NCBI GenBank assembly: GCA_964565685.1
Contig: CAZMFR010000001.1
Span: 36,376-100,375, forward strand
DNA: 64,000 bases
Direction: 5' to 3'
DNA from: an uncultured Candidatus Saccharibacteria bacterium
GTDB lineage: Bacteria; Patescibacteriota; Minisyncoccia; Phycocordibacterales; PALSA-1337
Positions 2,131 to 55,606 of this stretch are shown here, in pieces (within the stretch, counting starts at the first letter, position 1; each line of letters starts with the position of its first letter). A model generated the notes under the pieces. That model did not search any database. It saw only the letters and a program-made list of their open reading frames with translations, and was not told where the DNA came from. The position numbers and the translations under genes are program-made.

Positions 2131-2335
2131 GGTCATCATTCTACACCAAATCATCCACAAAACCAGGCAAATGCAGATTCGCACTAGGTACAATCCACGA
2201 CAAAATCGGCAAGCTGATGCCGATCTTGCAGTCAATCATATAAAGTTTTTAAAGTCATAAAGCCCGTAAATCCTACACAAATATTCTTGCGCCTGCTTTA
2301 CGAACCTTACAGACTTTTGACCTTATGGATTATCT

Positions 2336-2845
2336 CTATCTCGTCACCGAAATAATCGCGTCATTGGGCAGTATTTCTCCATCGCCGAAAATAGTTATAT
2401 GACCGCCAGTGTCTTTTGATACAAAATACCCTGTGTGATAACTTGACGTGCTCGTATATGAACCGTTCGTCGGATCATATGGCATTGACGATATATAATC
2501 TGGCACAAGACATGGTCCAAGATCGCCACCGTTGTTATTACCGCTCGAGATATCCGTAGTATTAGGATTAGGGCCATCGATAACATATGCACTGCCATTA
2601 CAGGTGAATACACCCTTGTGCTCGGCAATATTTTGATCGATCGCATCCAATATGGTAGCTACATTGGCTGAACGCTGGGTATCGCGCGCCAAAGCGAATT
2701 GATGGGCAGGATTTACGGCGACTATGACTACAGCCGCCAATATGGCGATGATGCCGATGACCACTAGCAATTCGATCAAGGTAAAGCCGTTGGTAAATGA
2801 CCTATATTGACGCCTACAAACAATGACAAAATGTTTCTCTTTCAT
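2336..2845 (-). CDS. type IV pilin / pseudopilin-like protein (prepilin-type N-terminal cleavage/methylation domain)
   Basis: N-terminus ...GFTLIELLVVIGIIAILAAVV matches the class III signal peptide G/FTLIE followed by a hydrophobic helix. 169 aa. Confidence 0.7.
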   Translation of the reverse strand: MKEKHFVIVCRRQYRSFTNGFTLIELLVVIGIIAILAAVVIVAVNPAHQFALARDTQRSANVATILDAIDQNIAEHKGVFTCNGSAYVIDGPNPNTTDISSGNNNGGDLGPCLVPDYISSMPYDPTNGSYTSTSSYHTGYFVSKDTGGHITIFGDGEILPNDAIISVTR

Positions 2846-3039
2846 ATTGTTTAAATATTAAAGCCGAAAGAATTCCGTAGAATCATAAAATCTCGAGATC
2901 AAAAGGGTGGATCCATGATGTAGAATTTATGATCCAAGAAAAAACGTATCCCGCATTTTTCTTGGATCTTTGATCTTAGATCCTGCCTTTGTATCCTCTG
3001 ACTTTAAAAAACGACGAATCTCCGGCCTTTGCTATTAAT

Positions 3040-3122
3040 GCGATAATTATAGAGAAAGGTTATTAAGAAAAGTTAAAAAAGTTCTAAAGAAAAGTTAAAA
3101 TCATACTAGACCTCGCGAGGTC
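3040..3122 (-). promoter_or_regulatory. Conserved AT-rich promoter-associated repeat, copy 1 (oriented toward the pilin gene at 2845), plus the adjacent palindrome GACCTCGCGAGGTC
   Basis: Read on the minus strand: GATTTTAACTTTTCTTTAGAACTTTTTTAACTTTTCTTAATAA, then 8 nt, then TATAAT (plus coordinates 3046-3051). This is a near-exact reverse complement of the copy at 31380-31422. The 14-bp perfect palindrome lies at 3109-3122. Confidence 0.55.
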
Positions 3123-3123
3123 A

Positions 3124-3762
3124 TTATGAGCTTATCCGCGTCTTTTCACCTTCATCCAAGTTGTGTCCAGTTATAAACCAAGTCTTCGGAGTCTCTATTA
3201 TTTTGCCTTCTTCGTCAACAATAGGCGTTTCCAGCATTTTACGGTTTGATTCGGACAATTCCGCAAATTCTTTTGTGCTTACAAAGCCCTTGAATGTTAT
3301 ATAACGTCCCGCCTTATCCTGAGAGACAGTCTCAAAGTCAACTTTTGGATCGCCCTCAATCTCTGCCAGCTTGTCGCACAATTTCCTGTAAAGAGTTATA
3401 TGATCTATCCTGCCTTCCCCGTAAAGAGCTTCCTTTGTCAGAGCATCTATCAGAACAAAAAATGCCCTCAATGCGCGCTGTTCGACGATATTGATATTGC
3501 TCGATTTTCCGTACAGATATACATGCTCTTCATCAAATGGAACGCCGAAAGACTCACAGACGTCCCTGCGCACGTCCTCGAACTCTTTTATCTCGGCACG
3601 AGCGTCAACCATACGCTTTTCATGGAGCTCTTTGTGAAGAACGGCATTTGGTTCGATAGATCTGACTTGTTTTTCCAAATGGTTTATTATCTTTAAAATC
3701 CCCTCATGATAATGGGTATTTTCATTTACTGGCGCCTGTTCGATTGAGAATTCTTTTGACAT
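3124..3762 (-). CDS. hypothetical protein
   Basis: 212-aa ORF with coding-like composition and no recognisable motif. It lies inside the pilus/ATPase gene cluster. Confidence 0.5.
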   Translation of the reverse strand: MSKEFSIEQAPVNENTHYHEGILKIINHLEKQVRSIEPNAVLHKELHEKRMVDARAEIKEFEDVRRDVCESFGVPFDEEHVYLYGKSSNINIVEQRALRAFFVLIDALTKEALYGEGRIDHITLYRKLCDKLAEIEGDPKVDFETVSQDKAGRYITFKGFVSTKEFAELSESNRKMLETPIVDEEGKIIETPKTWFITGHNLDEGEKTRISS

Positions 3763-3830
3763 GCAACAATCGTATCATATTTCTGCTTTATAGAGAAACA
3801 GGCGGTTTTTGTCCGAGATCCGATCTTGGA

Positions 3831-4055
3831 TTAATGATAATCCATCTTTCCGTTCAAAACCCTGTTCGCTTCCTCTAACGCCTCGTCAGGAGTCATCTCA
3901 TTCTTGTCCATACTCATTAGTATCTCATTGAGCAGGCCGAATTCGCTGTCGTTCGCGCCCATTACGGCCACTCTCTGGCGCACTTCTTCAATGCGCATGC
4001 GCGCTTCGTTTTTGGACATTGATGGTGTTTCAGTTTGATTCAAAAAGCGTTCCAT
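3831..4055 (-). CDS. hypothetical small protein
   Basis: 74-aa acidic ORF immediately downstream of the 924-aa ATPase on the same strand, 3 bp apart. Confidence 0.4.
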   Translation of the reverse strand: MERFLNQTETPSMSKNEARMRIEEVRQRVAVMGANDSEFGLLNEILMSMDKNEMTPDEALEEANRVLNGKMDYH

Positions 4056-4057
4056 AG

Positions 4058-6832
4058 TTATTTCCTATACTTCTCCGCAATCTGCGCCTCGATCTCTGCG
4101 CGATCCTTGCCATAAGTCAGATATGACAGCTCTTTCAGCTTGCCCGCGACATCCGCATCGCCTTTGGGGATATTCGGAACGGCGATGTTGAACGGTTTGA
4201 CGGGAACGCCTTTGGCCAAAAGTTTGACGTAACAGTTGTAATTGTCGATATTCAAAATGTCTTTTTGGGTAAAAGCCGGTTCGAATTGTTTTGCCAGAAA
4301 TTCGGCATCCTCGACTCCGACACGATAGACTGCCATAGAGCCGACATTGCCGAAGACGGCGTTCTTGATCTTTTCATCGAGCTGTTTGATGAATTGATGG
4401 GCGATGTTTAGCGACAGCTTGTATTTGCGCGCTTCGGACAGGATAGTGGCAATAGAATCAGTGGTTATATTCTGGAATTCGTCGATATACAGATAAAATG
4501 GCGGCAGGTTTTTGCCGAGCGAGTCGACGCGCGACAGAGCCGACATCAGGATCTTGCCGACAATGATCAGACCTATAAGATTGGCGTTTATGTCGCCGAG
4601 CCGGCCTTTTGATAGATTGACAAGCAAAATCTTCTTGTTATCCATTATGTCGCGAATATTGAATGTAGATTTTTCCTGTGCGATTACAGGACGCATGATG
4701 TCGTTGGCCAAGAAATTATCGAACTTTGACACGATATATGGAACGATATTAGCCAGAGATGCTTCGCCTCCGGCTTTGTCGGCTACTTCGCGCCAGAATT
4801 GGATTACGAGAGGGTTTTTACAAGTTGCCAGCTTGGACTCGCGGAATTGCTTGTTCGAGAGCACGCGCGAGACGTCGACCAGGGTGTTGTTCGATGACGG
4901 GTCGTCTATGGTAAGGAGGACCGCGTTGCGGAAATATTGTTCGAACATCGGGCCGCCGGCAGTTTTCATGTCGAAGAGCTTGTTAAAGATAGAGAGCATC
5001 TCATTGACCACAAATGTTTTCTGCTCCGGATAGCGCGTATCATATTCGAGCATGTTCAGAGCCATCGGTCGCGCCGTGTACGCCGGGTCGAAATAAATGA
5101 CGTCTTCAAAACGATCTTGTGGGACCAGGGCAAGTATATCTTCGACGTCAGAGCCATGCGGATCGATGAAGCAAAGGCCGTTCCCTTTTTGCATATCCTG
5201 AACGATCATATCCTTTAGCAAAGTCGTCTTGCCTGTGCCTGTCTGTCCGATGACATAAAAATGGCGCAGACGGTCATCGTCAGTCGTATAAACTTTTGTC
5301 TCTCGTCCGCGATCCGTATTGGTGCCGAGAAATGTCCCCATCTGCGGCAAATCCATAGGCGCAGGAGCCGTACCGGATTTCGTCAGCTTGACCTGAGAGG
5401 TCGAAACCTTGCCCGCTACCGGCAAATGCATGACTGTCGTGAGCTCACGCAAAGAAAGCGGGCAATCGCAGCTGTCATCGAATCTGCGATAGGTGAAGTC
5501 GTCTAGTTCTTTTTCCAACTTGCCTCTCGTCACACGAACGAATTCAAAGCAGTTCCCTTGGATATTTTCGAATTGGTTAAAGGAGGCCTCCAGATCAGAC
5601 AGAATGGCATTAGCTTTTGCTTCGCTTTCTGCAGAAGCGATGATACGGATATTTGTCGAGAGCACCGGCGACAAGAGCTTGTTTTGAATCTCCTTCATGC
5701 CGAGCTCGTCTTCAGGCCGATGGCCTTTCTGCGCCTTCTTCTCTTCTTTTTTCTTTTCCTTTTCCTCTTTGCTCGTCGTGACGCTTTCAAGCGCGCTTAC
5801 AAACCCAGAAGCAAAACCCTTTAGCGCTTTGTGTCCAAGAGAATACGCGATATCGATCGCCTCTGACAATTTTTCGCCCTTTTGGATCTTCTCTAATGCC
5901 TTCTTGTATTTTCCGGTATAGAAATCACCGACAGGACTAAAGACGATCTGGATCGACGCGCCTTCGCCATCGCGGTCTATCTTTGAAAAGCTGTTCAGAA
6001 GAGAATTGATCGGATCATGGTCGAACTGCTCGTATGTCTTTATCGGGAAGATATGATTCTTTTTTTGTTTGGCGCGAGACGCTACGGAGGCGCCGTTCTC
6101 ATTGAAGATATTGTAGTCGTTCTTGCATTCGTTCACTTTTGCATCTGGCAATATTGAAAGGATCTGCTTTTCAAATAGATTGCGTTTTTCATCCGGCACT
6201 GCGGCATAGAAAACAAAGTCGTCGCTGTGATTCGCTACTGCTATCTCGAAGACAAATCTGTTTTTACCGTCATCGCCTCCAGCACACATGCCTGCATAGA
6301 ATTGCTCCATCGACGAGAGGATCTCCTTCAACGGCTTTTGGGGATTGTCTTTCTTTTCATTTTCCGGCACCAGTATCTCGAATAGAGACATGTTCAGTTC
6401 CCTCCAAAGCGGGCTCTTCTCCTTTAATCCGCCGATGACAAAACCGGATTTCAGATATTGCACGAGCAGACGATGAAAGTCGGCAGAGATGTGCGGATTG
6501 TCCATTTTATCCACGATTGAAAGGGTGGCGTGTATGCCTTTTGTCTCGAGCATGCCGAGAAGCTCGTTCATCTTTGCATCATGCTGTTCCGGCGCGAGAT
6601 CTAGGACGATGGCCTCCATTTCCTGAGTAGGCACTATATATTTTTCCGCTAGCACTTCGCCCGGCTTTTTCTCGGCATATTTCAACACCTCCTCGCGCGC
6701 AACATGCTCGACAGACGCATCTGGAGTCCTTTCGAGGATCTCTTTCTCCTTTTTCGCGATCATCTCGCGCAGATACGATATCTCCTCTTGCGGATTCTGG
6801 AATTTTTCTGGCTGACCAATTAGATTCTCCAT
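4058..6832 (-). CDS. VirD4/TraG/TrwB-like (type IV secretion coupling-protein-like) P-loop ATPase with a large N-terminal domain
   Basis: C-terminal half carries Walker A (VIGQTGTGKTTLL), a DPHG motif (CFIDPHGSD), Walker B (LYIDEFQNI) and an HQ motif (NIAHQF). This set is characteristic of TraG/TraD/VirD4-type ATPases. HerA/FtsK-like is an alternative. The roughly 450-aa N-terminal domain has no TM segment. A K/E-rich low-complexity linker (EEKEKKKEEKKAQK) separates the two halves. Confidence 0.6.
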   Translation of the reverse strand: MENLIGQPEKFQNPQEEISYLREMIAKKEKEILERTPDASVEHVAREEVLKYAEKKPGEVLAEKYIVPTQEMEAIVLDLAPEQHDAKMNELLGMLETKGIHATLSIVDKMDNPHISADFHRLLVQYLKSGFVIGGLKEKSPLWRELNMSLFEILVPENEKKDNPQKPLKEILSSMEQFYAGMCAGGDDGKNRFVFEIAVANHSDDFVFYAAVPDEKRNLFEKQILSILPDAKVNECKNDYNIFNENGASVASRAKQKKNHIFPIKTYEQFDHDPINSLLNSFSKIDRDGEGASIQIVFSPVGDFYTGKYKKALEKIQKGEKLSEAIDIAYSLGHKALKGFASGFVSALESVTTSKEEKEKKKEEKKAQKGHRPEDELGMKEIQNKLLSPVLSTNIRIIASAESEAKANAILSDLEASFNQFENIQGNCFEFVRVTRGKLEKELDDFTYRRFDDSCDCPLSLRELTTVMHLPVAGKVSTSQVKLTKSGTAPAPMDLPQMGTFLGTNTDRGRETKVYTTDDDRLRHFYVIGQTGTGKTTLLKDMIVQDMQKGNGLCFIDPHGSDVEDILALVPQDRFEDVIYFDPAYTARPMALNMLEYDTRYPEQKTFVVNEMLSIFNKLFDMKTAGGPMFEQYFRNAVLLTIDDPSSNNTLVDVSRVLSNKQFRESKLATCKNPLVIQFWREVADKAGGEASLANIVPYIVSKFDNFLANDIMRPVIAQEKSTFNIRDIMDNKKILLVNLSKGRLGDINANLIGLIIVGKILMSALSRVDSLGKNLPPFYLYIDEFQNITTDSIATILSEARKYKLSLNIAHQFIKQLDEKIKNAVFGNVGSMAVYRVGVEDAEFLAKQFEPAFTQKDILNIDNYNCYVKLLAKGVPVKPFNIAVPNIPKGDADVAGKLKELSYLTYGKDRAEIEAQIAEKYRK

Positions 6833-7062
6833 GAGGATATTATAACAGAAATATTAATAATTATTTCAAGTCGTAAAGGACGGGAGGTGCATCCTTGTCA
6901 TACACGGGTATACATATATACGTTCCTGACGTGACCATGCGAAACACTATCTATTTCATGTGCGATAACAGAAGATTTCAAAGAGGTCCGGCAGTGGATA
7001 TATTTTATCGACATTTTCCTCCTTTAAGTGCGATTCTTTGAAATCTTTTTTGTATTCTTTAT

Positions 7063-7500
7063 TCATAAATTTTCCTCCGTCACCAGATCAATCGACCTGC
7101 CATTATCAATCGCTGTTGCGGAGACATGCTCCGTGACGTCGTCTTCATAACCAGACGCGGAAATAAAGATACTTTGGCCGCTTCGGCCGGCGGAAATGAT
7201 GGTGCAAGAAAAATCCGGCACGCTCTGATTTTTGGCAGCGTAAAAATAATCGTGGGCAAAAGCTAGAATGGCGACCGACACGCAAGATTTTGCGTTCAGA
7301 GTCGCCTGCATCCGATGCTCGCGGCGAGATACTGTGTCTTCGTAGCTTGAAGCCGCGCTAAAAGCGCCGAGGGAACCGAGCAGAATCATGATCATGACAG
7401 ACATGACGAGAAAGACGGCGACAAAGCCGCCAGAAGAAAAGATCGAAATATTATTCGTATCTTTCTTTTTTTCATTTTTAAAAATTATTCTCATACGCAT
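7063..7500 (-). CDS. putative pseudopilin-like membrane protein
   Basis: Hydrophobic N-terminal helix (GGFVAVFLVMSVMIMILLGSLGAF) follows a basic leader. The gene sits in the pilin operon. It overlaps the upstream gene by 23 bp, so the start is uncertain. Confidence 0.4.
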   Translation of the reverse strand: MRMRIIFKNEKKKDTNNISIFSSGGFVAVFLVMSVMIMILLGSLGAFSAASSYEDTVSRREHRMQATLNAKSCVSVAILAFAHDYFYAAKNQSVPDFSCTIISAGRSGQSIFISASGYEDDVTEHVSATAIDNGRSIDLVTEENL

Positions 7501-7687
7501 TTATTACGTCATCGGCAGTCGTTCGATTTTCAATGGCCGATGAATATGACAAAGGGATCAAGACTGTAACGATCATGGAAAAGATAGCCAAATATATTAT
7601 CACTTCGATCAGAGTGAAGCTGGAATGGATATCATCACCTTTTCGGCCAGACACGAAATTTTTCATTTTGATTTTTAATGTTTTCAT
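7478..7687 (-). CDS. prepilin-type N-terminal domain small protein (minor pilin-like)
   Basis: Contains SSFTLIEVIIYLAIFSMIVTVL, a prepilin cleavage/methylation motif with the hydrophobic helix. 69 aa. Confidence 0.55.
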   Translation of the reverse strand: MKTLKIKMKNFVSGRKGDDIHSSFTLIEVIIYLAIFSMIVTVLIPLSYSSAIENRTTADDVINAYENNF

Positions 7688-7693
7688 TTTCTA

Positions 7694-9094
7694 TTATTCG
7701 TGAAAATCTTTGATCGAAGCAATAGATGGACTATCGTTCGACGAGTTGTTGCTAACCACATAGATATCCCCCCAGTCGCATGACATGGCTGCAGGGACTC
7801 CTAGAATGCTATAAGCCGCGCTCGTCGTGCCGAGTCCGTCGTCAGAGCGGAATTGACCGCTTGTCCGATGGGTCAAGACGAGAAAAACTGGAGAACGAGA
7901 AATGACGCCATAGATGCCGCCCGGCTCATCGAACGAACTTCGCTCTGTAATGGCGACGTTTGAAACCATATCCGAAGCGTCATAAAGTATAAATTCTGGA
8001 TTTGCCGTATTGTTATAGCCGCCAGTATCGCGGCCGAGGATTAGCTCCCCTTCGAATAGATCGAGCGTTCGACCGCTTTGCGTTTGCCAACCAGATGGAG
8101 CCAAGGTTTCAAGAAGAACTGAATCTGTTGGATCTGAAACATCAAAGATCATGAGTTGATTGGCGCCAGTGCCGGCAACATATGCCCGCGTGCCATCGAC
8201 GAAGATCTTCTCCACCTTGTTCCCTATTTCATATCTGCCTGCCAATATCGGATGCGCAGGATCCGCCACATTCCAGACGGTAAATTCCGGGCTATCGCCT
8301 TTTTCCGTGCCGAGGTAGACAAAACCTTTGTCATAAAATATCGCCGAACCGTTTGGCGCCGTCGACGAGGCGATATCCATGGGCACTTTTGCCTGTGAAA
8401 TAATCATGGGATGCGAACGATCATGGATATCTATTATTTGGAGCTGGTCGATCGAACCTTTGTTTGACGCAAAAATATAAGGTCCGGCGACAGTCAAAGC
8501 GGCTAGGCCAGGGCCTGTATTCAAAGAAGAAACAAATTTTGGATCTGCCGCATCGTTCATGTCAAAAATGAATAGATCTGGATCGGTGGAACTGCTCGAA
8601 TCTGTCGAGATATAGGCAAAGCCGTCCTTGACCGAAAGGTCAGTGACCGAATTTGAAGGAGAGATCGGAAGAGCGGCGCTCGTCGACGAATAAGTATTAT
8701 TTGAAAAGCTTAAGGTCGGCGGGCACGTATCCTTGCCATAAGCCGAGAACGTATCTGGTTCAAGAATATTAAAAGAAATCGAAGAACTTCCAAACACGCT
8801 CGATGAAGCAGAGGTCGAAAGCACGGAAGATGTTGAAGCAGAAAAAGTAGCGATATCAGCATCGTTTCCGTAATCGGCATGAGCGAATTGCGGATCGAAA
8901 TTTGACAGATCAGCGACCGAGAGCGCGGCTTGATCCAAAAGTGTTTCTTTGTCTCGCGCTTCTTCGAACATCCTCCTCGAACCGAACGAAAGAGCTATGG
9001 TAGAAAAGATGCATATAGAAAACAAGGCGAGCGCGATTATCGCTTCGAGGATGAGAAAGCCCGGACATGAGCTGTTTTTTGTATAATTTTTCAT
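7694..9094 (-). CDS. pilin-like protein with C-terminal LVIVD-type beta-propeller repeats (candidate pilus-tip adhesin)
   Basis: N-terminus ...CPGFLILEAIIALALFSICIF is a prepilin-like motif. Downstream are repeated segments such as GFAYISTD...DPDLFIFDMNDAADP, GFVYLGTEKGD...WNVADPAHP and GTRAYVAGTGANQLMIFDVSDP, which resemble LVIVD repeats. The start is set at the internal Met at 9094; the ORF extends to 9184. Confidence 0.55.
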   Translation of the reverse strand: MKNYTKNSSCPGFLILEAIIALALFSICIFSTIALSFGSRRMFEEARDKETLLDQAALSVADLSNFDPQFAHADYGNDADIATFSASTSSVLSTSASSSVFGSSSISFNILEPDTFSAYGKDTCPPTLSFSNNTYSSTSAALPISPSNSVTDLSVKDGFAYISTDSSSSTDPDLFIFDMNDAADPKFVSSLNTGPGLAALTVAGPYIFASNKGSIDQLQIIDIHDRSHPMIISQAKVPMDIASSTAPNGSAIFYDKGFVYLGTEKGDSPEFTVWNVADPAHPILAGRYEIGNKVEKIFVDGTRAYVAGTGANQLMIFDVSDPTDSVLLETLAPSGWQTQSGRTLDLFEGELILGRDTGGYNNTANPEFILYDASDMVSNVAITERSSFDEPGGIYGVISRSPVFLVLTHRTSGQFRSDDGLGTTSAAYSILGVPAAMSCDWGDIYVVSNNSSNDSPSIASIKDFHE

Positions 9095-9266
9095 ATTTTT
9101 AAAGATATTGTCATTACTACGCATTTTGGCAGATACTATCTTCCTCGGGTACGCGTATCTTGTGCTGAAAATCCGTTCCATCATCGAGCCAAACTCTGCA
9201 GATCCCCATCTGAAGATGTACTTGCCTCCATGTTTAGATTTTCAAGTTCTACTTTTTTCGGCCTCT

Positions 9267-10343
9267 TTATCCTGATAAATGCTGTGAGATCCCGTAAATA
9301 GGCAGAACAATAGATAGAGCCGCGGCGCCGACGATGATCCCGACCGCTATCAATAGAGCTGGCTCGATCAGTTTTAAAAGACCAGCCAAACCAGTCGCGA
9401 GTTCGCTGGCATAATAACGGCTCATTTGCGCTAGGATCGATTCCATATTCCCTGTGCGCTCGCCTATCGCTATGCTATCGACTGCAAGCCCAGGAAAAAG
9501 CCGAGGAGAATTCCTTATGGCAGAAGAAAAATCAGACCCGATCCTCATCTCCTTTACTGCATTGGATAAAGCCCGCTCGTATGGGACAAATCCTATTGAA
9601 GCCGAAGATTCGGCTATGCTATCTATAAAAGGACAGCCAGCAGAGACAAGCGTGGAGACAGTATCGAATATCTCCGATAATATGTGTGTCTGAATGACGC
9701 GCCTCGCGATAGGAATGTACAAGATCAATTGATGGATGAGGTTTTTGAACCACATCGACCCCTTGTAGACAAAAGACAAGACGATGGCGATAGCGAACAA
9801 TCCTAGAAATATCTTCCACCAATCATTCGCCAGAAAATGCGATAGGGAGATAAAAAATATGGTGATCCATGGCAATGGCATGTGCAGACTCTCTATCGTC
9901 GGCATTATCTTTGGTATGATAAAAAAGACAAGAAAGGAGATTATGCCGGCCGAAGCCATAAAGATGATCGCTGGATATGTCATAGCCGATAGAAGGCCGC
10001 TCTTTACGGCACGGCTGCGCTCTATTCTGCCAGCCGCCGCTAGAAGCGATTCGGACAAAGTTCCGCTCCTTTCTCCAATGCGTGCGGCCAGGATCATCAT
10101 GCGAGAAAAGCCGAGCGGACAACCCGAAAGGGCCGACTCGAAGCTCATTCCATTGTTTAGTGAATTTTCGAGCATGGCTAACGAATCACAACGCCGCTTG
10201 CCGAAAGAGCGACGCATGATAGCGATCGATTCTGGTAGAGATAGAGACGCGCCTAGAAGCAGAGACAACCGCTCTGCAAAAATGCCTTGCTCTCTGTGGG
10301 ACAAGGGAGGGTTATTTAGTTTTTTTATAAGTTTTTTAAGCAT
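9267..10343 (-). CDS. pilC: type IV pilus assembly / type II secretion platform protein PilC (GspF family)
   Basis: 358 aa, three TM segments, two T2SS-F-like domains. Positioned directly after the pilB-like ATPase. Confidence 0.8.
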   Translation of the reverse strand: MLKKLIKKLNNPPLSHREQGIFAERLSLLLGASLSLPESIAIMRRSFGKRRCDSLAMLENSLNNGMSFESALSGCPLGFSRMMILAARIGERSGTLSESLLAAAGRIERSRAVKSGLLSAMTYPAIIFMASAGIISFLVFFIIPKIMPTIESLHMPLPWITIFFISLSHFLANDWWKIFLGLFAIAIVLSFVYKGSMWFKNLIHQLILYIPIARRVIQTHILSEIFDTVSTLVSAGCPFIDSIAESSASIGFVPYERALSNAVKEMRIGSDFSSAIRNSPRLFPGLAVDSIAIGERTGNMESILAQMSRYYASELATGLAGLLKLIEPALLIAVGIIVGAAALSIVLPIYGISQHLSG

Positions 10344-10511
10344 AGTTGTTAGAGCATCGAAGTCTGCAAAGTCCTTATCTGAAGAAAAACAAAGATGTTT
10401 TTGGAGATTTAGTTTCCATTTTGAGTGGATTTAAGATCCATGATCTAAGAATTCTTTTTTGCATTTTTCTTGAATTTTGAATCATAGATCTTGAATCTAT
10501 TCTCACGTTCT

Positions 10512-11627
10512 TCACAAATCCAACACTCGCTTTACTTCCTCTATTGTTGTCGCTCCCCACTCGACCTTTTCCGCGGCATGATCGCGCATAGAAACCATGC
10601 CTTTTAGGCGGGCATGCCTGGCTATTTCGACCAATGGCATTCTGGCGGAAATATACGCGCGCAATTCGTCGTCTATCTCGAGAACTTCGGCTATTATAGT
10701 CCGGCCACGATAGCCCTTTTGGAAGCAATATGGACAGCCAAGACCATCGCAGACGTGGCATAGTATTCGTACGAGCCGCTGTGCGATGACAATAGATAGA
10801 GTATGAGCGACAAGATACGGATCGATACCCAGATCGGAAAGCCGCGTCACTGATCCGAGCGCATCATTGGTATGGAGAGTCGAAATGACCAAATGACCAG
10901 TCAAGGCAATATTCGTGGCGATCTCTGCGGTTTCCCTGTCGCGGATCTCTCCGACCATGATCACATCAGGGTCTTGACGCACAAGAGAGCGCAAGCCGTT
11001 TGAAAAATTTATGCCGTGACGATGATCGATCGCGATCTGACGGACACCGTTGATGGCATATTCGATCGGATCCTCGAGAGTGACGATAGATAATGGTTCT
11101 GAAACCAATTGGCGCAACATGGCATACATAGTAGAGGTCTTGCCGCTTCCGGTCGGTCCGGTGACGAGAATGAGCCCCTGATTGCGTGTCAACGCTTCGC
11201 GTATTATGGCTTCATTATCCGGAGAAAAACCGAGCAAAGACAGATCGGCGGTGTTATAGCCGCCGGCCAAAATACGGATAACGGCATTTTCACCGAAATG
11301 AGTCGGGATTATGGATACGCGCATATCAATGGCAGGAGTAGCAGTAGTGATAGGACCTCTGCTGTATGAGAATCGCCCATCCTGAGCCAGCAGATGTATA
11401 TCCGGTCGCAATTTGGCGAGAACTTTTATTCTGGCGATCAATTCCTGATGAAGGGACAGAGGAATAGTCACGCAATGCGTCAAAATACCGTCAATCCTCA
11501 TGCGCACTATCAAACTGCCGTTTTCTGGATCGATATGCACGTCAGAAGCGCCATAAGAAATAGCGTAATCGATGATAGCGTCCAGGGCCTCGGTCGCCTT
11601 TATCCCATGCTGTATGTTTAATTGCAT
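10512..11627 (-). CDS. pilB: type IV pilus assembly ATPase PilB-like (GspE family), short form lacking the N1 domain
   Basis: Walker A VTGPTGSGKTST, Asp box DPDVIMVGEIRD, His box GHLVISTLHTNDA. The tetracysteine motif CHVCDGLGCPYC plus GRTIIAEVL is typical of GspE/PilB rather than PilT. Confidence 0.85.
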   Translation of the reverse strand: MQLNIQHGIKATEALDAIIDYAISYGASDVHIDPENGSLIVRMRIDGILTHCVTIPLSLHQELIARIKVLAKLRPDIHLLAQDGRFSYSRGPITTATPAIDMRVSIIPTHFGENAVIRILAGGYNTADLSLLGFSPDNEAIIREALTRNQGLILVTGPTGSGKTSTMYAMLRQLVSEPLSIVTLEDPIEYAINGVRQIAIDHRHGINFSNGLRSLVRQDPDVIMVGEIRDRETAEIATNIALTGHLVISTLHTNDALGSVTRLSDLGIDPYLVAHTLSIVIAQRLVRILCHVCDGLGCPYCFQKGYRGRTIIAEVLEIDDELRAYISARMPLVEIARHARLKGMVSMRDHAAEKVEWGATTIEEVKRVLDL

Positions 11628-11710
11628 GCAATAATCATAGAAAAAAGTTATTAAGAAAAGTTAAAATAGTTATAAAGAAAAGTTAAAGTCATAGGAGACC
11701 TCGCGAGGTG
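11628..11710 (-). promoter_or_regulatory. Conserved AT-rich promoter-associated repeat, copy 2 (oriented toward pilB), plus the GACCTCGCGAGGTG near-palindrome
   Basis: Minus-strand read: CTATGACTTTAACTTTTCTTTATAACTATTTTAACTTTTCTTAATAA, then 8 nt, then TATGAT, then 6 nt, then the pilB ATG. This implies a very short or leaderless 5' UTR. The near-palindrome is at 11697-11710. Confidence 0.55.
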
Positions 11711-11889
11711 AGGAATCGAATACTTGGAGCTTCCACAATACCAGAGCGCGACGGCGCGAAGCGGGACACATGTATGTATTGCTTTTTGTGATAAATGTGT
11801 TAGTCTGTCGTCTGGCAAAGTTCTTTCCAGCAAGTTCCAAGTGGACTGGGGGAAAATACAAAAACATAAACCAGATAGATCGATCATAT

Positions 11890-12597
11890 ATGGAAAAAAA
11901 CAAGGCAGTCGGAATTGAAAATCAAATCGGCGTCACCGCAATCATTGGATCTCATGGTTGCAAAAGCAATATCATCCTCGAAGGATTGAGCAAAACGGTG
12001 CCCTTTGTCCGAGGATTCTTATTTGCAGACATGGACCAAATAATCAATTGGCGAATGGATCTGCAAGACAAGATGACTGGGTTTTTTGAATTCATCAAAT
12101 ATAATCAGACGATGTTTCAAGAAAATAACCCAAAAGATCCCCAACCGATTAGGCATTTAGTCATGTGCAGTTTTCCTCAGACGAACGACCAGCTCGATCG
12201 TTTGCTCGAGTTCTGCCCTAAATTACGCATCGCTTTCATCGAGCTTCCGAACAACAAGGATGATGAGTCATTCGAGCTCGCAATGGGATTCAAGGAAAAG
12301 CATCGCGACCAGTTCATTTCGGTCAACCATTCGCGGCCGATCCATTACCAGGCCGAGCATATCCTGCGAGGCATGGACATCCTTCCCGCAGAGCGAAATT
12401 CCATGAGGAATTCGATCTTCGCCAAGAATTCGATGGCAAGGGCATTCTTTGACGAAACAAGCCGGCAAAAGCAAAAACCCACGCGGTCATTGTCGGAAGA
12501 TCCGAAATCAAATCATCCGGAAAACAAAACACCCGACGGAGTATCAATGGGCAGGATGTCTCCTGTCGCAAGCATCACAAGGATGACGACTTGCTGA
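11890..12597 (+). CDS. hypothetical protein
   Basis: Roughly 235-aa ORF divergent from pilB with no recognisable motifs. The start is chosen at the internal ATG; the ORF opens at 11770. Confidence 0.4.
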   Translation: MEKNKAVGIENQIGVTAIIGSHGCKSNIILEGLSKTVPFVRGFLFADMDQIINWRMDLQDKMTGFFEFIKYNQTMFQENNPKDPQPIRHLVMCSFPQTNDQLDRLLEFCPKLRIAFIELPNNKDDESFELAMGFKEKHRDQFISVNHSRPIHYQAEHILRGMDILPAERNSMRNSIFAKNSMARAFFDETSRQKQKPTRSLSEDPKSNHPENKTPDGVSMGRMSPVASITRMTTC

Positions 12598-27349: not shown

Positions 27350-27737
27350 AAAAAGATAGTAGTATCATACCAGAAATTATGAGCATGATACTTACACTTA
27401 CAAAAAGCGACTGGAAAGAAGAAGTCCGATCGTCTGGCTTGCCAGAGAGAACGCGCGAGCTTCTCGCCTCGGCGCTCCATGCAAAAATGACAGGCAAACA
27501 ACGATTCTCCCCGCGCATATCCGATGAGGAGTTTGAAAACATGATATCACGCCAAGTGATATTCATACGGCTTGGATCTAGGGGATTTATAGTGACAAAA
27601 AGGCGTTGCAAAAATGGGCAATTGCTCGTTTTGCAAGAAGAGACTTGACCAACCACGGCGCGGAATCCTATTCTGCGCCTTTTTATATATTTGCCAATGC
27701 GACCTTTTGGTGGCACTATATGTCAATGACAGCGTAT

Positions 27738-28319
27738 ATGAAAAAGACTTCTATGAATAACTCACACGGCTTGCTCAAAAGAGCCGGCTTCACTCTCATC
27801 GAGCTTCTGGTCGTAATCTCCATCATCGGCCTTTTGTCGACCATAATCTTGGCGGCAGTGCAGGGTGCGAGAACAAAGGGAAAAGAAGCTGTAATAATTA
27901 GCGAGCTTGTACAATTCCGAAATCTATATGAAACAGCTTACTCAACATATGGAAATTATGGATCATTACAACCAAGCGCATTCAATACTTGCACAGCATA
28001 TAGTGGTAGCACAGGATATCTTTGTGCTGCAAATTCTATCAATGGTTGTTCCTATATATACGGAACGGGAGGAGATATAACCAATTCTTCATTTTCTCAA
28101 TCTGCTTTGACCTTATGTGATCAAATTGTCAATGATACAGGAGGATTATATATAGGTCTACCAGGACCAACCATTAATAATCAACAATATTCTTTGTGGG
28201 CATTATTGCCGTATCAAAACAAATATATGTGTTTTGGAAGTAGTAAAAATAATTCCTCAACCAGCTCGTCTCCAATTTCTGCTGGTAGCACATCACCAGG
28301 GTGTCCAGGAAATCCGTAA
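27738..28319 (+). CDS. type IV pilin-like protein
   Basis: MKKTSMNNSHGLLKRAGFTLIELLVVISIIGLLSTIILAAV is a class III signal peptide with the G-FTLIE motif. The mature protein is roughly 170 aa and Ser/Thr/Gly-rich. Confidence 0.7.
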   Translation: MKKTSMNNSHGLLKRAGFTLIELLVVISIIGLLSTIILAAVQGARTKGKEAVIISELVQFRNLYETAYSTYGNYGSLQPSAFNTCTAYSGSTGYLCAANSINGCSYIYGTGGDITNSSFSQSALTLCDQIVNDTGGLYIGLPGPTINNQQYSLWALLPYQNKYMCFGSSKNNSSTSSSPISAGSTSPGCPGNP

Positions 28320-31379: not shown

Positions 31380-31436
31380 GATTTTAACTTTTCTTTAGAA
31401 CTTTTTTAACTTTTCTTAATAATTGGTCTGTATAAT
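31380..31436 (+). promoter_or_regulatory. Conserved AT-rich promoter-associated repeat, copy 3, with TATAAT -10 box 7 nt upstream of the MazF-like ATG
   Basis: GATTTTAACTTTTCTTTAGAACTTTTTTAACTTTTCTTAATAA, then 8 nt, then TATAAT (31431-31436). Exact reverse complement of copy 1. Confidence 0.6.
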
Positions 31437-31443
31437 TTGGTAC

Positions 31444-31842
31444 ATGAATGAAAGATATATAAAGGAATTTGACCTTTGGAACGCTAAAAAGAAGGAGATC
31501 GAACGGTCAGATGTGGAGCGGCTTTGTCGTGAACGAGAGATTTGGTGGTGCACTCTTGGGGTGAATGTAGGTTCCGAACAAGACGGCAAGAACGAGCTAT
31601 TTGAGAGACCTGTCTTGATCTTGAAGAGATATAATATAGATTTGATTCTTATCCTGCCAATCACCAGTACAGAAAAGAACAATCCATATTACGTAAAAAT
31701 CAGCGGCGTCGTGTCTTCAAGTGTTATCTTGTCTCAGATTAGAGCCGTAGACAGCAAGAGACTTTTACGGAAAGTAGGAATGATCTCCATAAAAAATTAC
31801 CTACTTGTTTTGTTCAGTTTACTCAAGACACTGCTTCCCTAG
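31444..31842 (+). CDS. PemK/MazF/EndoA-family endoribonuclease-like protein (no adjacent antitoxin ORF seen)
   Basis: REIWWCTLGVNVGSEQDGKNELFERPVLIL matches the MazF/PemK core (G.EQ.G.RPVLV). ILPITS and VILSQIRAVDSKRL resemble EndoA VILLEQIRTIDKQRL. There is a roughly 30-aa N-terminal extension. Confidence 0.6.
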   Translation: MNERYIKEFDLWNAKKKEIERSDVERLCREREIWWCTLGVNVGSEQDGKNELFERPVLILKRYNIDLILILPITSTEKNNPYYVKISGVVSSSVILSQIRAVDSKRLLRKVGMISIKNYLLVLFSLLKTLLP

Positions 31843-35580: not shown

Positions 35581-36521
35581 TACAGATACTTTGTCTCATT
35601 GGTCATCTGCTCGTCATATGTCTCGGCAAAATGTATGTTCCCTTTTGAATCAGACAAATAATACCAATATGTCGTGCTAGCCGGCGAGATTGAGTCCTCT
35701 ATCGCTGAAAGCCCGGGGTTACCGATAGGCGTCGGAGGCAAGCCGAGATTTTTATATGTATTGAATGGCGAAGTGGTCGCCAAGTCGTCAGAAGTCAATT
35801 TTGTACCGTCTTTATCCAGAGCAAAAGCTAGGGCGGCATCCACTTGGAGAGGCATCTTGTCGTCTAGACGCTTCCATAGAATGCCAGCGATGATACGGCG
35901 GTCATTAGAAGAGGTCGCTTCGCGCTCGAGAATCGAGGCCATGATGACGATGGACGATGTGGCACGGCCAGATTCCGAGATCTGATCTTGGACAGAAGAA
36001 ATCTTTTGATCAAAGAGCGTGCGCATAGCTTTCACCGCATCGTCTGGCGAAGTATCCATATTAAAGAAATACGTGTCCGGAAACAGATATCCTTCTGACG
36101 GATCTGCCAAAGTCATAAAAGTCGAAGTGGAAAAACCAGGAATATCTTTGCCGAGCAACGCTGAAATCTGCTGTACATCAAAACCCTCTGGGATGGTCAC
36201 TTTGATCGGGGTAAATCCATATTCTCCATTGACGAGCCGCCGTGCGACCTGTACGACTGATTCCTTCGAATCAAAAAGATAATCCCCTGCCTTGACCCCT
36301 CTCTCGCCTGAAAAAATTATCACAAAAGACTTGAATAGAGCTTCTGATCTTATCATATGATCATTATAGAGATTATCCGTGACTGCGGCGAGCGAAGAGT
36401 TCTGCTCGATGTGAAAAATCGTTCCGACAGGAAAAGTTAAAGAAGGAAACGCGGCAAAACCAAACATGGCAAGTAAAACGACTATGAAAAAAACACCGAT
36501 AGCCGACAGAAACTTTTTCAT
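35580..36521 (-). CDS. mltG: endolytic murein transglycosylase MltG (YceG family)
   Basis: N-terminal TM helix. Motifs IPEG, ASILEREA and GLPPTPIGNPG, plus a YWYYL C-terminal region. Confidence 0.75.
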   Translation of the reverse strand: MKKFLSAIGVFFIVVLLAMFGFAAFPSLTFPVGTIFHIEQNSSLAAVTDNLYNDHMIRSEALFKSFVIIFSGERGVKAGDYLFDSKESVVQVARRLVNGEYGFTPIKVTIPEGFDVQQISALLGKDIPGFSTSTFMTLADPSEGYLFPDTYFFNMDTSPDDAVKAMRTLFDQKISSVQDQISESGRATSSIVIMASILEREATSSNDRRIIAGILWKRLDDKMPLQVDAALAFALDKDGTKLTSDDLATTSPFNTYKNLGLPPTPIGNPGLSAIEDSISPASTTYWYYLSDSKGNIHFAETYDEQMTNETKYL

Positions 36522-38005
36522 ACTGGTATATTCGCTGGCGCTTCGCCTTTCTTTGACGGCACGCGAGTCAATGTCGGCGTAGCCGCGACCTGACCCGGGA
36601 AGTGATAGATGGTAGCGAGCGACTCAGAGCTCATTATCATGGGCTTCAGATGACCGATAATATGCGTATATGGCGGAAAGAAGTACGAACGGCGCTTGTA
36701 CATGTCGAGGGCTTGTTTTGAAAAATGCTCGGCCATTTTGCCGCTCCTGTCTTCCCATGGCAAGTCTATCCTCTCGAACCACAGGTCATCGCTCGTGCCG
36801 AGCCCGTTCATGTGCGGAGCGCTGTATTGTTTCCACATGCTCTGCATGGCGCCTGGATTCGCCTTGTTGAAATTCTCTTTTTTGGCGATGTACATAAGGC
36901 GGATGCCCACATCAAAGCCGAGCTTCGTAATATTGCGCTCGATGGCTGTGATGATATCTTCCTCGCCTTTCGTTATCCTAGGCATCTTTGAAAAACCAGT
37001 GTCAGCATCGGCCGCACCGGCAACATGTGTCTTTGGATCGCGCCTGTGCAATTTGTTCACCAACGCTTCGGCCTCTTTTTGTCTCTTGTCGTGCTTTTTA
37101 AAGAAGTGACCTGGCTCGACATGATCGCTCTTTTTATATGCACGGACTAATATCTGCACCCATGCTTGCTGATTGACCCCGATCGATCCCAAAAATTCAA
37201 TGACCGGCGCGATCGGATCGACCTTGAATTCTTCCTTTGGATCCTTGTCTAGACCGTAATCCACATAAGTCATGAGCGGGTATGCGTCTTCTTTGCTGAA
37301 TTGAAGGTCAGCGGCCCAGATCTCCATTGTCTTTGGATCGTAATGGACAGATTGGGCGTAATCTGTCGCATCATGGACTTCTATGCCCGGGAATTGGGCA
37401 TACAGCGATGTCGAGATAAAATTCTTCAGAGATTTTCTCATCCAAATGAAGAAATGTATCTGCCCTTCTATCGAGACGAGCTCGAGAGAAAACCAAGCTC
37501 TGGTCTTTCCGTACCAATATTTGCCGAACCAGCCGCCTTCGCCCGCAGTCTGATGGAGCGCGGTCAGGAACATCTCCATGGCCACTGGGGACTTCACCGT
37601 CTCTTTTGGCAATCTGACTTCGACTATAGAATATTCTTGCTTTGAAAGCGTTTTGGCTCTCGTGTAATTAATCCAAAGATCGATGAAAATAAAGAAAAGA
37701 GCGATCATCACCGCCAAAGGAGACAGAGCGATCAAGATGTCAAAGAATACATTAAAATTTGATGAGCTTACAAATATATTGACGAATAACCAGAAACAAA
37801 AGACGACGATAAAACCGGAAATGCTCCAAAAAAGATATTCCTTGTGCTCTTTTAGCTTGTGGTTGACAAAAAAATAACGGTAGATATTAAAGAAAAAAAC
37901 AACGACAGAGACAGCGATCAAGATGTACATGATCACATGATATTGCGTTATAGATAGACCTATCTGGCTCATAGAATAAGTATAACAATTAAAGGCAAAA
38001 GGCAA
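36518..38005 (-). CDS. hypothetical membrane protein (4 N-terminal TM helices plus roughly 350-aa soluble domain)
   Basis: 495-aa ORF that overlaps mltG by 4 bp. No recognisable motif. Confidence 0.5.
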   Translation of the reverse strand: MPFAFNCYTYSMSQIGLSITQYHVIMYILIAVSVVVFFFNIYRYFFVNHKLKEHKEYLFWSISGFIVVFCFWLFVNIFVSSSNFNVFFDILIALSPLAVMIALFFIFIDLWINYTRAKTLSKQEYSIVEVRLPKETVKSPVAMEMFLTALHQTAGEGGWFGKYWYGKTRAWFSLELVSIEGQIHFFIWMRKSLKNFISTSLYAQFPGIEVHDATDYAQSVHYDPKTMEIWAADLQFSKEDAYPLMTYVDYGLDKDPKEEFKVDPIAPVIEFLGSIGVNQQAWVQILVRAYKKSDHVEPGHFFKKHDKRQKEAEALVNKLHRRDPKTHVAGAADADTGFSKMPRITKGEEDIITAIERNITKLGFDVGIRLMYIAKKENFNKANPGAMQSMWKQYSAPHMNGLGTSDDLWFERIDLPWEDRSGKMAEHFSKQALDMYKRRSYFFPPYTHIIGHLKPMIMSSESLATIYHFPGQVAATPTLTRVPSKKGEAPANIPV

Positions 38006-54793: not shown

Positions 54794-55468
54794 ATGAAGA
54801 TATTATTCGTTGACGACGATGCGGATCTGCGCGAGGTTATGAGAGACAATCTCGAAGCGGAATCTTATACCGTAGATGTCGCTCCAGACGGCAAAAATGG
54901 CTCATACATGGCTAGGACCAATCATTATGATCTGGTCATTTTGGATTATTCCATGCCAGAAAAGAACGGCGCCGTCGTCGCTAAAGAAATCCGCGGGGCT
55001 GGTCTGGCCACGCCGATAATATTCCTCTCTATCATTGATGATGCGGAAAAGAAAGTGGCCGTTTTAGAGAGCGGCGCTGACGATTATATGGAAAAGCCGT
55101 TCGCTTATGCCGAGCTCTCGGCCAGAGTAAAGGCGATTCTGCGCCGGCCGCCGGAGGTAAAACAGAATATAATCGCAGTAGGCGGCATCGTCATCGATCT
55201 ATCCAGACAAACTGTCACGCTCGATAGCACTGCTCTGTATCTGACATGTAAAGAATTCAATCTCCTGCGATACCTCGTGAGCAACAAAAACCTGGTTCTA
55301 TCGCGAAGCATGATCATGGATCATGTTTGGAACGCGAATAGCGACCCTTTTTCAAACACGATCGAGGCCCATATCACCAATTTGCGTAAAAAGCTCCACA
55401 ACGGCAATCGCGAATATATAATCAATGTGCCAGGACGCGGCTATATGATCACTGATGGCAACCGGTGA
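54794..55468 (+). CDS. OmpR-family response regulator
   Basis: Receiver domain (KILFVDDDADL...D...K) and winged-helix C-terminal domain (LTCKEFNLLRYL...RGYMI). Confidence 0.85.
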   Translation: MKILFVDDDADLREVMRDNLEAESYTVDVAPDGKNGSYMARTNHYDLVILDYSMPEKNGAVVAKEIRGAGLATPIIFLSIIDDAEKKVAVLESGADDYMEKPFAYAELSARVKAILRRPPEVKQNIIAVGGIVIDLSRQTVTLDSTALYLTCKEFNLLRYLVSNKNLVLSRSMIMDHVWNANSDPFSNTIEAHITNLRKKLHNGNREYIINVPGRGYMITDGNR

Positions 55469-55579: not shown

Positions 55580-55606
55580 TAACTATTTTAACTTTTCTTA
55601 ATACCA
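55580..55606 (+). promoter_or_regulatory. partial copy 4 of the AT-rich promoter-associated repeat upstream of the sensor kinase
   Basis: TAACTATTTTAACTTTTCTTAATACC, then 8 nt, then CTATGCT. Matches the 3' half of the repeat, including the spacing to a -10-like hexamer. Confidence 0.4.

Follow-up and report, generated by a model that had tools for sequence, protein, structure and literature searches.

A type IV pilus cluster beside a soluble VirB4/VirD4-superfamily ATPase in a Patescibacteria chromosome: probably two separate modules

Introduction

Does a chromosome in which type IV pilus genes adjoin the gene for a conjugation-type ATPase encode one machine, or two that happen to be neighbours? 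The question is raised by positions 2336–11712 (minus strand) of a 64-kb stretch of DNA (64,000 nucleotides (nt), hereafter the window) on contig CAZMFR010000001.1 of an uncultured Candidatus Saccharibacteria bacterium, where genes for a short PilB, a PilC platform protein and three pilin-like proteins are followed by those for a 924-amino-acid (aa) ATPase, a 74-aa open reading frame (ORF), a 212-aa ORF and a 169-aa pilin. An earlier note on this DNA took the linkage to suggest one machine for DNA uptake, DNA transfer or host attachment. On such a reading, the coupling-type ATPase would have joined the pilus locus in this lineage, with contact made by the pilus and DNA or protein pumped by the ATPase. 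Patescibacteria rely on other cells, with pili and secretion systems central to that life, and a hybrid of type IV pilus and conjugation motor would have been new. The comparative data presented here point instead to two known things lying adjacent as the most likely explanation, the pilus and ATPase modules being probably separate in function and neighbours by chance.

Linkage of the ATPase to pilus genes among relatives

Linkage was scanned in one genome per species, across 80 loci encoding ATPase homologues of 50–77% identity, with up to 10 kb on each side. A tblastn search with the PilB and PilC of the window placed pilB/pilC within 10 kb of the ATPase gene in a single locus of the 80 (L023), with five other genes in between, so that adjacency among relatives does not exceed the frequency expected by chance for a 20-kb window in a genome of less than 1 Mb. 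A metagenome scan with PilC yielded three distant loci only (22–24% identity), which were not used.

Clustering of the neighbouring ORFs in 82 loci (the 80, the window's own locus and L004) identified the usual place of the ATPase gene as the tail of the ribosomal spc operon, an unexpected position for a conjugation-type ATPase. The conserved order, on one strand, is S8-L6-L18-S5-L15-secY-adk-(228-aa ORF)-map-[ATPase]-ndk-DUF2238-beta-CASP nuclease. The gene immediately upstream of the ATPase is map in 48 of the 82 loci, and the one immediately downstream is ndk in 52; gene names were confirmed on a 566-kb contig carrying Pfam annotation. An example of this position is found at 1–22745 of L016, one of the related loci L004–L085.

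Closer relatives are arranged differently again. Where the ATPase is 75% identical, its gene has secA, a NUDIX gene and obg as neighbours. The 91% identical homologue (L098/L099) lies in the order S2, EF-Ts, PheS, 305-aa ORF, ATPase, flavoprotein, remnant of the 74-aa ORF, L21; the 90% identical homologue (L100) is followed by a 200-aa ORF, counterparts of the 74-aa and 212-aa ORFs and then a NUDIX gene, pilus genes being absent; and the 85% identical homologue (L089) follows a MurJ-like tail, a 366-aa coiled-coil protein and a 100-aa ORF, and precedes the 74-aa ORF, a pilin 66% identical to the 169-aa pilin, a VTT protein and a glycosyltransferase, as in the window. Neither pilB nor pilC is near the ATPase gene in the contexts of these three relatives; the pilB-pilC-minor-pilin block abuts it in the species of the window only, and the major pilin gene in two species. 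ATPases that are 85–100% identical thus occupy four different neighbourhoods (window, L089, L098/L099 and L100), indicating very fast shuffling of gene order within the genus and making adjacency weak evidence of shared function. The inference of a combined machine from linkage therefore finds no support in the relatives, and on these comparative data the locus is not to be treated as a hybrid machine.

Domain architecture and family of the 924-aa ATPase

The 924-aa protein (4058..6832, minus strand) scores just above the cut-offs of two Pfam models (TrwB_AAD_bind, 24.7 bits, cut-off 20.5; TraG-D_C, 24.2 bits, cut-off 22), the sequence match covering no more than the region around Walker A and, at the C-terminus, the TraG-D_C part. 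Curated full-length models stay far below their cut-offs, with the TraD and CD1115-type VirD4 models at 47.6 bits (cut-off 366) and 40.7 bits (cut-off 250), and the VirB4 model TIGR00929 at 24.4 bits (cut-off 643); DUF87/HerA (PF01935) reaches 21.5 bits, below its cut-off of 23.2. In the PDB, the single sequence and a 40-sequence profile alike match coupling proteins only, namely TrwB and DotL, and no VirB4.

Residues 1 to ~480 form a DUF8128 domain (PF26449, assigned in precomputed Pfam annotation to this exact protein and to each homologue listed) with the fold of a VirB4 N-terminal domain. Beyond a proline-rich linker, residues ~490–924 make up a P-loop domain of the VirD4/TrwB kind, interrupted by an all-helical insertion (~603–731), the helices of which lie between core strands in an AlphaFold model built with 40 homologues (mean pLDDT 75.9). 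A Foldseek search with this model returned full-length TrwK/VirB4 as the best matches (E-value 3e-15, ~900 columns), together with HerA (E-value 3.5e-12, template modelling (TM) score 0.50) and TrwB-deltaN70 (E-value 6e-11); TrwB chains gave the best superposition (TM score 0.66, spanning almost the whole of TrwB-deltaN70), helical insertion included, and the structural match to HerA is weaker than that to TrwB. The Walker motifs A (G529–K535) and B (D784–E785) are invariant in the 40 homologues. No N-terminal transmembrane segment was detected in a hydropathy scan, the N-terminal 480 residues folding as a soluble domain, so a hybrid machine would have no membrane anchor on the ATPase for docking at the pilus base.

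From its profile matches and predicted structure, the protein is classed as a soluble member of the VirB4/VirD4 superfamily that combines a VirB4-type N-domain (DUF8128) with a VirD4-type motor. It is not a canonical VirD4, for want of a membrane anchor and with a VirB4-like domain at its N-terminus. The superfamily implied by the earlier label of VirD4/TraG-like ATPase stands, while its domain architecture has been refined; the profile comparison of VirD4 with HerA/FtsK and the structure prediction that the earlier note proposed both led here, and neither assigned the protein to an unrelated ATPase family.

An identical protein is encoded on a 199,866-bp JGI metagenome contig (3300041809, Ga0455670_0000397). 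The close homologues retrieved number more than 1,142 and, where named, all belong to Patescibacteria, Paceibacteria or Parcubacteria (Pacebacteria, Paceibacterota, Parcubacteria, Nomurabacteria and Taylorbacteria among the names, all Patescibacteria), and a 50%-identity library holds 5,057 clusters at E-values of 1e-30 or below. With members 50–60% identical across the whole class, the family appears to be a large one of Patescibacteria, inherited vertically and with its origin among conjugation ATPases.

No relaxase or VirB4-based type IV secretion system (T4SS) is encoded in the window or among the conserved neighbours of the related loci, and the window likewise holds no ComEC or channel protein through which a hybrid machine might act. 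A hidden relaxase downstream of the ATPase was considered and rejected, BLASTP of the downstream ORFs of several Patescibacteria loci against plasmid replication-relaxation proteins showing no relation. A defence system was also rejected: PADLOC matches the ATPase core only (mad8, E-value 1e-14; HerA weakly), and the 74-aa and 212-aa ORFs not at all.

Promoter-like elements and transcription signals

The two promoter elements of the earlier note proved real, being copies of an 84-nt direct repeat (D1; 89% identical), both on the minus strand: the first (11626..11709) ends at the pilB start codon, and the second (3038..3121) lies ~190 nt upstream of the start codon of the 169-aa pilin. At the position matching the pilB ATG, the copy before the pilin gene has ATT. 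Each element holds two 19-nt boxes, TTTAACTTTTCTT(A/T)A(T/G)AAC, with 22 nt spacing. Seven such boxes occur in the window (0.01 expected), mostly as tandem pairs with this spacing and in every case shortly before a gene, namely pilB, the major pilin gene, a PemK-like toxin gene (boxes at 31383–31423, plus strand) and a histidine kinase gene (55587–55605, plus strand). The histidine kinase gene follows one for an OmpR-type response regulator (54794–55468), and the tandem boxes have the look of a response-regulator site, a hint that the pilus genes are under two-component control. Only loci of the same organism show the exact box pattern; it was found in none from another species, including the 85% relative, and the element is thus not traceable beyond this organism. 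The PemK-family toxin gene (31444–31842, plus strand), with the same tandem boxes upstream, has no obvious antitoxin called beside it.

The possibility that the 84-nt repeats are attachment sites on either side of an 8.6-kb insert was considered. It was rejected, since additional copies precede unrelated genes at 31383–31423 and 55587–55605 and mark the repeats as promoter-type elements.

The 230-nt gap that separates the ATPase gene from the 145-aa ORF contains no copy of the 84-nt element. Direct reading of the sequence locates there a putative private promoter of the ATPase gene (6839..6869, minus strand: TTGAAA, 19 nt, TATAAT), the -10 box of which ends 6 nt 5' of the ATG. This promoter-like sequence is absent from a consensus scan restricted to spacers of 16–18 nt. 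Over 2200–12000, that scan for sigma-70 promoters and terminators returned no more sites than shuffled sequence, so transcription units cannot be defined from it. Before both the ATPase gene and pilB (6830–6869 and 11625–11645, minus strand), a -10-like hexamer ends 6 nt from the ATG with no Shine-Dalgarno sequence, suggesting leaderless transcripts. We infer from these signals that the ATPase and pilus genes may form separate units, with which they agree; the ATPase gene, with its own promoter-like sequence and without the element shared by the pilus genes, again fits poorly with a combined machine.

The type IV pilus genes

All ORFs of the earlier note are present on the minus strand at their given positions within 2336–11712, and the family assignments of the cluster hold; its gene content is far beyond chance, and matches to the T2SSE, T2SSF and N_methyl profiles bear out the claim that it encodes parts of a type IV pilus, with a GspE/PilB-family ATPase, a PilC/GspF platform and pilins bearing class III signals. 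The PilB-like protein (371 aa; 10512..11627, minus strand) matches PF00437 (T2SSE) over its whole length (E-value 1.5e-105), and comparison of GspE/PilB with PilT models, as earlier proposed, gave 411 bits for GspE, 385 for PilB, 227 for ComGA and 167 for PilT, assigning it on sequence profiles to the short extension type (GspE/PilB) and not to PilT. It is without the N-terminal domains of long PilB (no GSPII-type domain), the related PilB of L023 having 572 aa, and in its translation the cysteines form a compact CxxC...CxxC arrangement in CHVCDGLGCPYC, not one spread across ~30 residues. PilC/GspF (358 aa; 9267..10343, minus strand) matches PF00482 (T2SSF) in two stretches (E-value 1.8e-37), scores 211 bits with GspF and 167 bits with PilC models, and has three hydrophobic regions in a hydropathy scan.

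The largest pilin-like protein (7694..9184, minus strand) combines a pilin-type N-terminus, CPG/FLILEAIIALALF (CPG/FLILE) followed by a hydrophobic helix, with LVIVD repeats (PF08309, E-value 1.6e-10). It has 496 aa from the first ATG, and gene callers give 476 or 466 aa, with M21 or M31 the probable start; the 467 aa of the earlier note was essentially right. By analogy with propeller-bearing tip proteins, this LVIVD-repeat (beta-propeller type) pilin is probably a tip adhesin or a minor pilin adhesin. A 69-aa minor pilin (7478..7687, minus strand; S/FTLIE; PF07963 N_methyl, E-value 3.4e-5) shows weak N-terminal matches to ComGE, ComGF and GspI, and a 145-aa protein (7063..7500, minus strand) may be termed pseudopilin-like by its hydrophobic segment (residues 17–53) and operon position, with no Glu5 and no family match above threshold among Pfam and NCBIfam profiles. 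The 169-aa type IV pilin (2336..2845, minus strand) carries a canonical G/FTLIE (PF07963, E-value 2.5e-7; TIGR02532, E-value 4.2e-7) and is probably the major pilin. The class III signal (G, A or S before F-x-x-x-E) and hydrophobic helix are shared by the 169-aa, 69-aa and LVIVD proteins.

As the earlier note had stated for the prepilin peptidase, PilM/N/O and secretin, Pfam annotation of the called genes and further scans found none of PilD (Peptidase_A24), PilM/N/O, PilT, ComEC or a secretin encoded in the window, and no PilD in its flank of ~6 kb either. Scans of the window for tRNAs and Rfam families gave no matches. Outside the cluster, an extra, lone pilin-like gene (27606–28319, plus strand; 237 aa, N_methyl at residues 58–82) adjoins a UvrD/PD-(D/E)XK helicase-nuclease gene, its true start probably lying downstream of the first start codon.

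Companions of the ATPase and a DUF8128-only paralogue

The true companions of the ATPase gene, moving with it from place to place, are the 74-aa and 212-aa ORFs. The 74-aa ORF (3831..4055, minus strand; no family match) starts 2 nt after the ATPase stop codon and is kept with the ATPase within the genus, 53% identical and directly 3' in L089, 68% identical in L100 and as the remnant in L098/L099. The 212-aa ORF (3124..3762, minus strand) encodes a conserved hypothetical protein of Paceibacteria with no family match and 40 homologue clusters of 44–87% identity; its homologue follows the ATPase and 74-aa ORF in L100, and is located elsewhere in the P0410 genome. Gaps of 230 and 278 nt flank the three-gene block.

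Outside the pilus locus, the window also encodes a membrane-anchored, DUF8128-only paralogue of 484 aa (36518..37972, minus strand; precomputed PF26449 match), with three N-terminal transmembrane helices and a weak match to T4SS_pilin (PF18895, 25.1 bits, cut-off 26.6). BLASTP between the ATPase and the DUF8128-only protein is not significant, and homology to the ATPase N-domain was recovered by profile-profile comparison (hhalign, probability 98.4%, E-value 8.6e-15). The DUF8128-only family is large and conserved in Paceibacteria (2,538 hits), and the paralogue holds a conserved place before yceG-mnmA, also in a distant genome, and not near virB4. By description, it resembles the 'TrsD' (VirB4 N-terminus-like) proteins reported to be abundant in Patescibacteria. 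That the paralogue partners the ATPase is speculation, and it is a tentative idea, with the odds against it, that the two form a minimal VirB4/VirD4-derived translocation motor, vertically inherited in Paceibacteria, which would work apart from both the pilus and the virB4 cluster, possibly in the exchange of nucleic acids or proteins with the host. The conserved location of the ATPase gene, with adk-map on one side and ndk plus the beta-CASP nuclease on the other, hints at nucleotide acquisition.

Two modules and the alternatives

The gene identities, fold assignments, repeat element and lack of conserved linkage, all of them shown here, are best accommodated by two modules side by side in a Paceibacteria-type chromosome of the Patescibacteria. 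The first would be a monoderm-type type IV pilus, in which an operon supplies the short PilB, PilC and three pilin-like proteins, PilB powering pilin assembly on the PilC platform, and the major pilin gene is transcribed separately, further along. With the same 84-nt element at the start of both units, assembly genes and major pilin are probably co-regulated; the peptidase, PilM/N/O and any retraction ATPase would be expected elsewhere in the genome. The second module would be the three-gene block of ATPase, 74-aa ORF and 212-aa ORF behind its own promoter-like sequence. By analogy with TrwB and VirB4, the ATPase is most likely a ring-shaped motor driven by nucleoside triphosphates, serving a chromosomal T4SS in trans or performing a role derived from a T4SS, and not serving the pilus; we infer its oligomeric state, activity, substrate and partner proteins, as well as the transcription units of the locus.

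A role in trans or derived is favoured on account of the published record of orphan VirD4 homologues. Orphan coupling-type ATPases occur at about two per Patescibacteria genome in the literature, with no assigned role, and one study (Quinonero-Coronel 2025, PMC12102498) counts 5,713 VirD4-type homologues in 2,918 Patescibacteria genomes, 148 of them near virB4, and comments that exaptation of these homologues cannot be excluded; the same study reports that a VirD4 homologue of Southlakia is non-essential and its T4SS genes essential.

Several observations weigh against separate modules. From pilB through the 169-aa pilin, all genes are contiguous and share a strand, uninterrupted by any gene in the opposite direction, and the ATPase gene stands between the operon for pilus assembly and the gene for the major pilin; the 230-nt gap yielded no convincing terminator, and read-through from the pilus operon into the ATPase gene is possible; and the order ATPase, 74-aa ORF, pilin recurs in one relative (L089). 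Pilus-dependent DNA transfer with a coupling protein also has precedents in PAPI-1, R64 and Ced (PMC12857230; PMC12102498). As to the partner, no virB4 cluster that the ATPase could serve was seen in the window or its flank of ~6 kb, and the Southlakia result argues against a simple T4SS partnership.

Among the alternatives to two separate modules, the one that survives best, although unlikely, is exaptation of the ATPase for a core task, either DNA segregation or repair in the manner of HerA/FtsK or nucleic-acid import for nucleotide salvage, perhaps with the DUF8128 paralogue. The housekeeping synteny, from the ribosomal operon, secY, adk and map to ndk, DUF2238 and the beta-CASP nuclease, is in keeping with such a task, as are the good structural match to HerA, the conservation of a paralogue with three transmembrane helices, the small fraction of homologues near virB4 and the printed comment on exaptation (both from PMC12102498). 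Synteny of this kind is, however, weak functional evidence in small, gene-dense genomes, and the sequence profiles favour coupling proteins over HerA, with DUF87 below its cut-off.

That the block is what remains of a mobile element, be it an integrative conjugative element, a plasmid or a prophage, inserted into the pilus locus is distinctly improbable. Distant homologues do occur on plasmids of Bacillus, Streptomycetaceae, haloarchaea and Sulfolobus and in Bacillus phage G (gp156, JN638751.1, a member of PHROG 5156, which matches residues 188–920 with an E-value of 9e-83), and the block is set off by gaps and changes place between close relatives. Yet the class-wide identity of the ATPase and its conserved housekeeping position indicate vertical inheritance, no integrase, relaxase or replication gene lies nearby, the G+C content of the block (0.42–0.48) is not aberrant for the window (0.43–0.52), and the 84-nt repeats are promoter-type elements. 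A prophage, considered as the principal explanation on the PHROG 5156 and gp156 matches, was rejected on the same vertical conservation and synteny. The hybrid machine fares worst of all and is highly improbable, its contiguity, its gene order shared with L089 and its precedents being outweighed by chance-level linkage, the unlinked homologues of the three closest relatives, a private promoter-like sequence and the missing anchor, relaxase and channel.

The pilus cluster and the orphan coupling-type ATPases of Patescibacteria are both already in the literature. Added here are a VirB4-type N-domain (DUF8128 fold) in place of the membrane anchor, a membrane-bound DUF8128-only paralogue, and the housekeeping position map-[ATPase]-ndk; a search of the literature that was not exhaustive, and that covered some sources in part, did not find these three points stated, and they offer handles for testing the function of the proteins.

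Comparison with known systems

In the candidate phyla radiation (CPR), type IV pili that lack a secretin are widespread (PMC6744442), and the sets comprise PilB, PilC, PilM/N/O, PilT, PilD and pilins, with no PilQ (Meheust 2019, PMC6744442; Xie 2022, as cited in PMC12102498). The locus in the window resembles them in its GspE/PilB ATPase, PilC platform, several class III-signal pilins and lack of a secretin, in a monoderm-type bacterium, and differs in holding ATPase, platform and pilins only, in its short PilB (371 aa), in the LVIVD repeats of one pilin, and in being split by an unrelated three-gene block. The R64 thin pilus, PAPI-1 and the Ups/Ced systems of Sulfolobales likewise bring together, within a single organism, a type IV pilus and an ATPase of the VirB4/VirD4 class; in those cases cooperation has been demonstrated by experiment or linkage is conserved on the element, whereas linkage in the window is confined to one species.

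With TrwB of R388 and VirD4 (PDB 1e9r and 1gki; DotL, 6sz9; Cag-beta, 8dol), the window ATPase shares a P-loop domain bearing an inserted all-alpha domain, at ~16% identity; it differs in having a 480-residue soluble domain and no N-terminal transmembrane segment, and no relaxase or T4SS neighbour. The VirB4-type N-terminal domain is held in common with TrwK/VirB4 (PDB 7o42 and 8rtd), unlike which the C-domain reaches 24 bits against the VirB4 cut-off of 643 and no VirB3, VirB6 or VirB8 gene is adjacent; published Patescibacteria virB4 genes lie near dnaA and dnaN, not near map and ndk. By description, the orphan VirD4 homologues of Patescibacteria (PMC12102498) are further counterparts, being also chromosomal VirD4-like ATPases, far from virB4, without a relaxase and phylum-wide; a VirB4-like N-domain and a map-[ATPase]-ndk position were not seen for them in the passages covered.

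The same architecture is found on 256 plasmids (of Streptomyces, Bacillus, haloarchaea and Sulfolobus), mostly typed as 'non-mobilizable', some of which may be mis-typed. Two such plasmids, from Bacillus subtilis (64.7 kb, NZ_OX419568.1) and Embleya (325 kb, NZ_CP108778.1), encode homologues of 913 and 812 aa that are of similar length to the window ATPase and align with it from residue ~200–260 to the end, the homology thus reaching into the N-terminal half, at 22–26% identity. Unlike the chromosomal gene of the window, they are plasmid-borne and stand directly before a replication-relaxation family protein, inside T4SS-like clusters of PrgI/VirB3-like, TcpE, VirB4-like and NlpC/P60 proteins, a context from which the DUF8128-ATPase architecture would appear to play the part of the coupling protein in conjugative elements of monoderms.

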